Shown: positions 61,504-61,542 of the stretch, piece by piece
How the letters are laid out: each line of letters begins with the position of its first letter
Position numbering within the stretch: position 1 is the stretch's first letter
DNA from: Candidatus Bipolaricaulota bacterium
GTDB lineage: Bacteria; Bipolaricaulota; Bipolaricaulia; RBG-16-55-9
Assembly: GCA_026982655.1 (NCBI GenBank)
Contig: JALSGO010000083.1
Coordinates: 30-64,029, forward strand
DNA length: 64,000 nucleotides
Reading direction: 5' to 3'
Made by a program: the position numbers and the translations under genes
Notes under the pieces: model-generated
The model's database searches: none
What the model saw: the letters and a program-made list of their open reading frames with translations, nothing else
What the model was told of the DNA's origin: nothing

Positions 61504-61542
61504 GGGGGGGGGGGGGGGGGGGGGGGGGGGGGGGGGGGGGGG
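61504..61542. repeat. 39-nt homopolymeric G tract
   Basis: Counted directly (7+30+2 G). It lies in the intergenic gap 18 nt after a stop-codon hairpin and 10 nt before a -35 box. Confidence 0.95.

Follow-up and report, generated by a model that had tools for sequence, protein, structure and literature searches.

A G-rich intergenic tract of differing assembled length, probably prone to slippage, beside metal-handling-type genes in a Candidatus Bipolaricaulota metagenome contig

Homopolymeric tracts associated with promoters include the poly-G/C tracts of porA and opc in Neisseria meningitidis, the poly-C tract of fim in Bordetella pertussis and the poly-G tracts of tpr in Treponema pallidum. 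Known promoter tracts are approximately 8-17 nt long and are retained across strains; in host-adapted pathogens, they are usually located between the -35 and -10 hexamers of a surface-protein gene or directly beside them. Promoter-proximal G-quadruplex (G4) motifs were also reported in bacteria, for example in Deinococcus. In addition, two-colour sequencing chemistry produces poly-G tails, which arise at the 3' ends of reads. The class of homopolymeric phase-variation tracts was described in PMC6321876 and PMC11868660. In Campylobacter, the lengths of poly-G/C tracts peak at 9-10 with 13-15 being rare, and a survey with PhasomeIt placed 82% of the tracts inside ORFs, where they produce translational switching (PMC6321876).

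The window analysed here, the whole 64-kb stretch of Candidatus Bipolaricaulota DNA, carries 39 consecutive G without interruption, and the direct count agreed with the exact number given in a first-pass annotation of the same DNA. The distance of 18 nt between the stop codon of the upstream LolA-like gene and the first G was also as annotated, with TAA at 61484-61486. The tract sits in a 195-nt spacer between a YHS/MMPL/LolA-like unit and a beta-propeller-rhodanese/methyltransferase/multicopper-oxidase unit (Table 1). It was the only homopolymer longer than 9 in the window, followed by one G9 (9204-9212), one G8 (19840-19847) and two G7, and no C run longer than 6 was found in the 64 kb. A first-order model of the window, with a composition of 66.6% GC and P(G given G) = 0.34, predicted approximately 3e-14 runs of at least 39 and approximately 5e-4 runs of at least 17 by chance. 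A G4 motif, taken as at least four runs of three or more G within a short span, is trivially contained in G39 and also in the shorter G9-A-G7 allele described below. With 39 G, the tract exceeds the PhasomeIt hypermutability threshold for mononucleotide G/C tracts of at least 7 (PMC6321876).

Table 1. Positions of the G tract, the flanking genes and the sequence features of the spacer in the window.
Feature	Position	Strand	Basis
LolA-like gene (Pfam TP_0789-like, PF17131)	60626..61486	+	ORF list; Pfam on identical ENA gene
7-bp hairpin GCAGCCG-TAA-CGGCTGC (arms 61477-61483 and 61487-61493)	61477..61493	+	Read from sequence; seen in minus-strand fold
G tract, 39 nt	61504..61542	+	Direct count
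Perfect 12-bp inverted repeat GGGGGAGATCCC (61538-61549) / GGGATCTCCCCC (61559-61570), 9-nt loop	61538..61570	+	Repeat search; arms 100% complementary
Two direct 16-nt units GGGAGATCCCCCTTGC and GGGATCTCCCCCTTGC, 19 nt apart	61540..61574	+	Repeat search, 88% identity
Candidate promoter of downstream operon TTGCGT-17-TATCGT (TTGCGT 61552-61557, TATCGT 61575-61580)	61552..61580	+	Read from sequence; putative
32-codon ORF MSLRRETFIALRPQPGRTETLRHNSEEEGMSP	61587..61685	+	Read from sequence
Shine-Dalgarno GAGGAGGAGGGG of 480-aa gene	61664-61675
480-aa signal-anchored beta-propeller (YVTN/lactonase-like) + rhodanese gene	61682..63124	+	ORF, Pfam

The LolA-like gene is the final gene of the upstream unit, and MAGs of Candidatus Bipolaricaulia list its homologues under the name 'outer membrane lipoprotein-sorting protein'. 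The beta-propeller/rhodanese gene opens the downstream unit and is followed by genes for a methyltransferase, a His-rich 744-aa protein and a multicopper oxidase; a 78% identical orthologue of its 480-aa product was found in a Candidatus Bipolaricaulota MAG. Together with a P-type ATPase and an ArsR-type regulator, the neighbourhood consists of metal/sulfur-handling types, unlike the surface or restriction-modification genes of typical contingency loci. The window as a whole was rich in copper/metal genes (cupredoxins, HMA, two MMPL, multicopper oxidase and YHS). It also contained paralogous segments with approximately 77-78% nucleotide identity, 20811-21253 with 9607-10048 and 41134-42022 with ~34155-35051, and the latter pair are two heavy-metal P-type ATPase genes (HMA/E1-E2). 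The proteins on both sides of the tract are recorded in NCBI, JGI/IMG and ENA, and one of them in the GEM catalogue, as encoded on a contig of 64,034 nt, so the window takes in nearly all of its source contig. The source contig stops within a (GAGCAC)n hexanucleotide repeat (63887-64000 of the window) which continues in L013 (6362-6520) and was crossed by an ENA contig; the repeat probably caused the break of the source contig. It encodes the (EH)n His-rich N-terminus (EHEHEH...THEHTHEHAHG...) of the 744-aa protein, for which no Pfam match is on record, and the (EH)n stretch is probably a metal-binding tail.

An independent contig, ENA ERZ27262642 k141_51617 (26.6 kb, with a MEGAHIT-style name), encodes the exact LolA-like and 480-aa proteins. 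It was collinear with the window over 57504-64000 with different breakpoints, as it begins at 57504 and extends 10 kb beyond the window end. Only one SNP (57691) and the tract difference separated the two sequences over the shared 6.5 kb. At the tract, k141_51617 reads GCTTGC-GGGGGGGGG-A-GGGGGGG-AGATCC, which is G9-A-G7 with a length of 17 nt. This allele is 22 nt shorter than that of the window and has an interrupting A, while the flanks are otherwise identical. A G-rich tract is truly present at this position, and the expectation of the first-pass annotation that at least some of the G are genuine was supported. The length was not reproduced, being 39 nt in one assembly and 17 nt in the other (n = 2, against approximately 15 SNPs per 37 kb elsewhere), and neither 39 nor 17 is to be taken as the true value; the caution advised earlier over the tract length was justified.

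Both lengths are values from two assemblies, and the Logan contigs retrieved from SRR7968108, all of them near other genes of the window, do not extend to the tract; no paper that mentions this run was found. Searches for a third tract allele gave only relatives at ≤84% amino acid identity in the genome and metagenome scans and nothing closer than 87% in the protein search, and for each flanking gene the protein cluster at 90% identity contained one member. For reads crossing the tract, GGCTGCAGGGGCTTGC and AGATCCCCCTTGCGTTGGG would serve as anchor sequences.

Poly-G k-mers can bridge unrelated tips in two-colour assemblies and the tract is intergenic, both of which agree with a chimeric join of unrelated contig ends through a shared poly-G k-mer that would create false synteny, and the first-pass annotation had warned of such a join and of unsafe synteny around it. 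However, k141_51617 has other breakpoints and crosses the junction with identical flanks, hence the flanks are truly adjacent and no contig-join artefact is involved. The gene order of the relatives gave the same answer, since L010 and L011 keep both flanking genes with only a ygaP-like gene between them and in L006 the two genes are directly adjacent. The tract itself is internal to the contig and was found neither at a contig end nor at a join of non-adjacent sequences. A chimeric join was rejected as extremely improbable, and the earlier concern was refuted.

Length inflation of a short true tract such as G9-A-G7 during sequencing or assembly is a more serious alternative, although we consider it unlikely. 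The approximately 22 extra G could come from dark-cycle reads, homopolymer miscalls, k-mer loop traversal, or gap closing and overlap merging of G-ended tips. The source contig, with 64,034 nt, is of the short-read metagenome type, two-colour chemistry is well known for its artefactual poly-G tails, and the only independent assembly shows 17 nt with an interrupting A. In addition, 39 is one of the default k-mer sizes of MEGAHIT; the number could have been set by the assembler, in which case the true tract could be even longer. Length calls from short reads also worsen as homopolymers lengthen (PMC11140927).

Against inflation stands the direction in which dark-cycle tails would act. Plus-strand tails would extend the left flank only and would not be able to make k-mers leading from a long G run into AGATCC, that is, G(more than 7)-AGATCC. 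On the plus strand, minus-strand tails would be seen as a run of C located 5' of the real G run, which would interrupt the tract and not lengthen it. As the tails would provide no connection between a long G run and the right flank, a contig that passes through G39 implies that molecules with long G beside AGATCC were present.

Four ENA contigs from the assembly that includes k141_51617 were compared with the window over approximately 37 kb, with 15 SNPs and three indels in total. The indels were the G tract, 8 nt in an (AGCA)n repeat at ~28903-28930 and 1 nt at 51221, and two of the three (the G tract and (AGCA)n) were in simple repeats. Apart from the tract, the approximately 37 kb was free of homopolymer noise between the assemblies, which again argues against inflation, and the control G9 at 9204-9212 did not differ between the window, the ENA contig and one Logan contig from SRR7968108. 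The other repeat indel is in a tetranucleotide, and this also speaks against inflation; dark-cycle chemistry does not produce such a difference, and the assemblies therefore draw on slightly different strains with real differences in repeat length. Judging from these sequences, the data sets contain closely related strain variants, and the SNP and indel pattern favours real strain-level slippage over chemistry noise.

Of the Logan contigs of SRR7968108 compared with the window, two were 100% identical and the third had four SNPs. The (AGCA)n repeat immediately precedes an SBP_bac_5 (peptide-binding protein) gene, within its leader, the ATG being near 28952; it is two units (8 nt) longer in the window than in ENA contig k141_50892. 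The 15 SNPs include a group of six at 24053-24077 that separates the window from k141_50892. These are located inside dnaK (HSP70), five of them exactly 3 nt apart, and resemble a short patch of recombined or strain-variant sequence affecting synonymous positions.

The closest named relatives of the source are Candidatus Bipolaricaulota/Bipolaricaulia MAGs. The locus was compared in L005, L006, L009, L010, L011 and L012, with LolA-like proteins of 76-87% amino acid identity, and in L003 for the downstream gene. The order MMPL, LolA-like, (ygaP-like), beta-propeller/rhodanese, methyltransferase was kept in the relatives. No homopolymer of at least 9 was found in approximately 33 kb of the loci of these seven relatives, and the tract was absent in all six in which the orthologous locus was compared, thus it is neither retained at orthologous loci, as a contingency tract would be, nor positionally conserved, as a G4 element would be.

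The contents of the spacer differed among the relatives. A gene for a YgaP-like membrane protein of 68-73 aa is located between the LolA-like and beta-propeller/rhodanese genes in L005, L010, L011 and L012, and the genes of L010 are packed tightly enough for one operon. In L009, the closest relative (87%), the ygaP-like gene is a pseudogene with a CAG to TAG change. It is absent in the window and in L006, where the LolA-like gene directly adjoins the beta-propeller/rhodanese gene. The junction intervals are 61487-61681 in the window, 3889-4110 in L005, 3873-4082 in L010, 3862-4068 in L011 and 3858-4070 in L009. Local alignments of the 195-nt spacer of the window with the spacers of five relatives were no better than shuffled controls. 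These comparisons point to an evolutionarily unstable LolA-like/beta-propeller junction, and the tract is a recent, lineage-specific feature of a remodelled spacer and not a conserved element.

A remnant of a lost ygaP-like gene in the window spacer was rejected, as the spacer alignments were at null level and the product of the 32-codon ORF showed no similarity to the YgaP-like protein of the relatives. This ORF begins with an ATG ~7 nt past TATCGT and ends in a TGA shared in part with the start codon of the 480-aa gene (ATGA). The ORF could be leaderless, and may be a leader peptide or a chance ORF. A tract hidden at the start of the L003 contig, 180 nt upstream of the orthologue, was also rejected because the alignment with L005 showed ordinary sequence with C6/C8 only. 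The C6 of L003 (37-42) and the C8 of L005 (4511-4518) are ~139 nt upstream of the orthologous start in a region where the two relatives are 90% identical. In the window, the distance from the end of G39 to the ATG is 140 nt, which is comparable but on the opposite strand, and the match in distance is probably a coincidence.

The first-pass annotation had described the stop codon of the LolA-like gene as the loop of a 7-bp hairpin, and both arms and the TAA were read as such. It had also assigned the final five G of the tract to a 12-bp inverted repeat, which the repeat search confirmed, the left arm of GGGGGAGATCCC/GGGATCTCCCCC taking in these G. Each of the direct 16-nt units has a near-palindromic GGGA-NN-TCCC core followed by TTGC, and the units are possible operator/-35 modules by their sequence. 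An intrinsic terminator was rejected for both hairpins (61477-61493 and 61538-61570) since neither has a T-run and the terminator scan was empty. No Rfam family was found in 61300-61800 at E ≤1. The inverted-repeat region gave a 56-nt RNA fold of -32 kcal/mol (z = -1.95), and RNA folds of the tract region were mildly more stable than shuffles (z ~-2 to -2.6); such z-scores are unremarkable for a sequence with long G and C runs.

The 35-nt palindromic/direct-repeat block occurred once in the window, and a repeated or mobile element was rejected on this ground; no evidence was found for the tract and the palindrome block together as a mobile element either. CCCCCTTGC occurred four times in the window against 1.6 expected, which was not significant. 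A further pair of inverted repeats, CCGTAACGGC (61481-61490) and GTCGTTACGG (61589-61598), brackets the whole tract and the palindrome block, and in both alleles the minimum-free-energy RNA fold pairs the two with each other.

The position annotated for a -35 box, 10 nt past the tract, was confirmed, as TTGCGT does start there; the hexamer has a match of 3/6 to the sigma-70 consensus (4/6 for TATCGT), and a consensus scan of 61000-62000 returned no promoters and no terminators. TTGCGT as a -35 box is a weak call and no established feature. Modest support for the placement of a promoter comes from the recurrence of the hexamers in relatives: L005 has TTGCAC-18-TATCGT just upstream of the orthologous beta-propeller gene, and L011 has TTGCGG...TATCTT upstream of the orthologue, preceded by GAGAATCCAC. 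The G tract is upstream of the TTGCGT-17-TATCGT pair and outside its spacer. Should the promoter be genuine, the tract would span ~-46 to -84 with respect to the putative start site, and any effect would thus be exerted through spacing or phase and not as an on/off switch. The GGGGGAGATCCC/GGGATCTCCCCC palindrome and the candidate promoter are the same in both tract alleles, so a change in length would only shift the upstream DNA.

These features bear on the proposal that the tract is a selected regulatory device, either a promoter-proximal hypermutable switch or a G-quadruplex, which would tune or insulate the downstream metal/sulfur operon through spacing and helical phase or through a non-template-strand G4/R-loop during readthrough from the upstream operon. 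The first-pass annotation had weighed a genuine G-quadruplex or phase-variable element against a sequencing or assembly artefact and had placed the tract in the UP-element zone of the next operon. G4 formation is possible for any run of at least 15 G, the end of the tract is 9 nt from the candidate promoter for which like hexamers were found upstream of the orthologue in L005 and L011, and it abuts the duplicated near-palindromic units, which are possible operators. The two length alleles differ by 22 nt, which is approximately two helical turns. However, the two-turn match is a single comparison, in which a nearly whole number of turns would arise by chance approximately 30% of the time, and carries no evidence of selection. 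The tract is outside the -35/-10 spacer, the usual site of transcriptional homopolymer switches, the consensus scan finds no promoter, and the neighbours are of metal-homeostasis type and not surface or restriction-modification genes. The absence of the tract in 6/6 relatives with 76-87% amino acid identity, together with an intergenic sequence that is not alignable, further weakens the proposal, and we regard a selected device as improbable.

Compared with the promoter phase-variation tracts, the locus is similar in having an uninterrupted intergenic G:C run just upstream of a gene, with lengths that differ between near-identical genomes, and slipped-strand mispairing is the expected mechanism in both. 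It is unlike them in its length of 39 (or 17) nt, in its location upstream of a weak -35-like hexamer, in its metal/sulfur-handling genes, in its free-living uncultivated lineage and in its absence from all relatives. As in the Campylobacter contingency loci, a hypermutable poly-G varies in length among close genomes, whereas Campylobacter is AT-rich with many loci and here a single intergenic tract was found in DNA of 66.6% GC with no other long run in 64 kb. With bacterial G4 motifs the tract shares a position upstream of a gene on the coding strand and satisfies any G4 definition, but the characterised motifs consist of discrete runs of three or more G with loops and are positionally conserved, whereas this tract is a pure homopolymer and is not conserved. 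Finally, the locus resembles the two-colour artefact in that a short-read metagenome contig carries a long run of pure G whose length is unreproduced elsewhere. Artefactual poly-G is found at read or contig ends or joins unrelated sequence, whereas here the run is internal, its flanks are adjacent and a second assembly is G-rich at the same position.

The reading that we favour, and consider probable though well short of certain, is a real, lineage-specific, slippage-prone and hypermutable poly(dG).poly(dC) tract of uncertain length which is probably near-neutral. Most likely, the G-run in the left arm of the GGGGGAGATCCC/GGGATCTCCCCC palindrome would have expanded by slipped-strand mispairing, a cause that we infer, after loss of the small ygaP-like gene had freed the spacer. 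Very frequent slippage would be expected for so long a run, so that lengths would differ between near-identical strains, and 39 would be one allele or the estimate of the assembler and not a fixed property. The pure G39 and the interrupted G9-A-G7 resemble the two forms in which such repeats usually occur, a pure one that can expand and one stabilised by an interruption. Any effect would act via the distance and helical phase between the upstream DNA and the weak promoter. The tract would most likely be a near-neutral by-product and not a selected device. The length of G39, far beyond that of characterised bacterial contingency tracts, counts against this favoured reading.

For annotation, the neighbouring synteny is trustworthy and the tract length is not; the tract is to be recorded as a hypervariable intergenic homopolymer and not as a demonstrated contingency locus or G-quadruplex element. 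Any function is probably minor, and the tract would be of biological interest only if its length alters expression of the downstream metal-handling operon. A real tract of at least 39 nt acting as a selected, extremely hypermutable promoter-proximal element, which diversifies expression of the copper/sulfur-handling operon in a free-living, uncultivated Bipolaricaulota population, is very improbable, slightly more so than a selected device in general; if true, no known mononucleotide contingency tract would come close to it in length, and it would be located outside the usual host-adapted pathogens. If the long heterogeneous G runs are real, a hypermutable homopolymer of unusual length would be present in an uncultivated environmental phylum of high GC, and it would provide a handy marker of within-population microdiversity.
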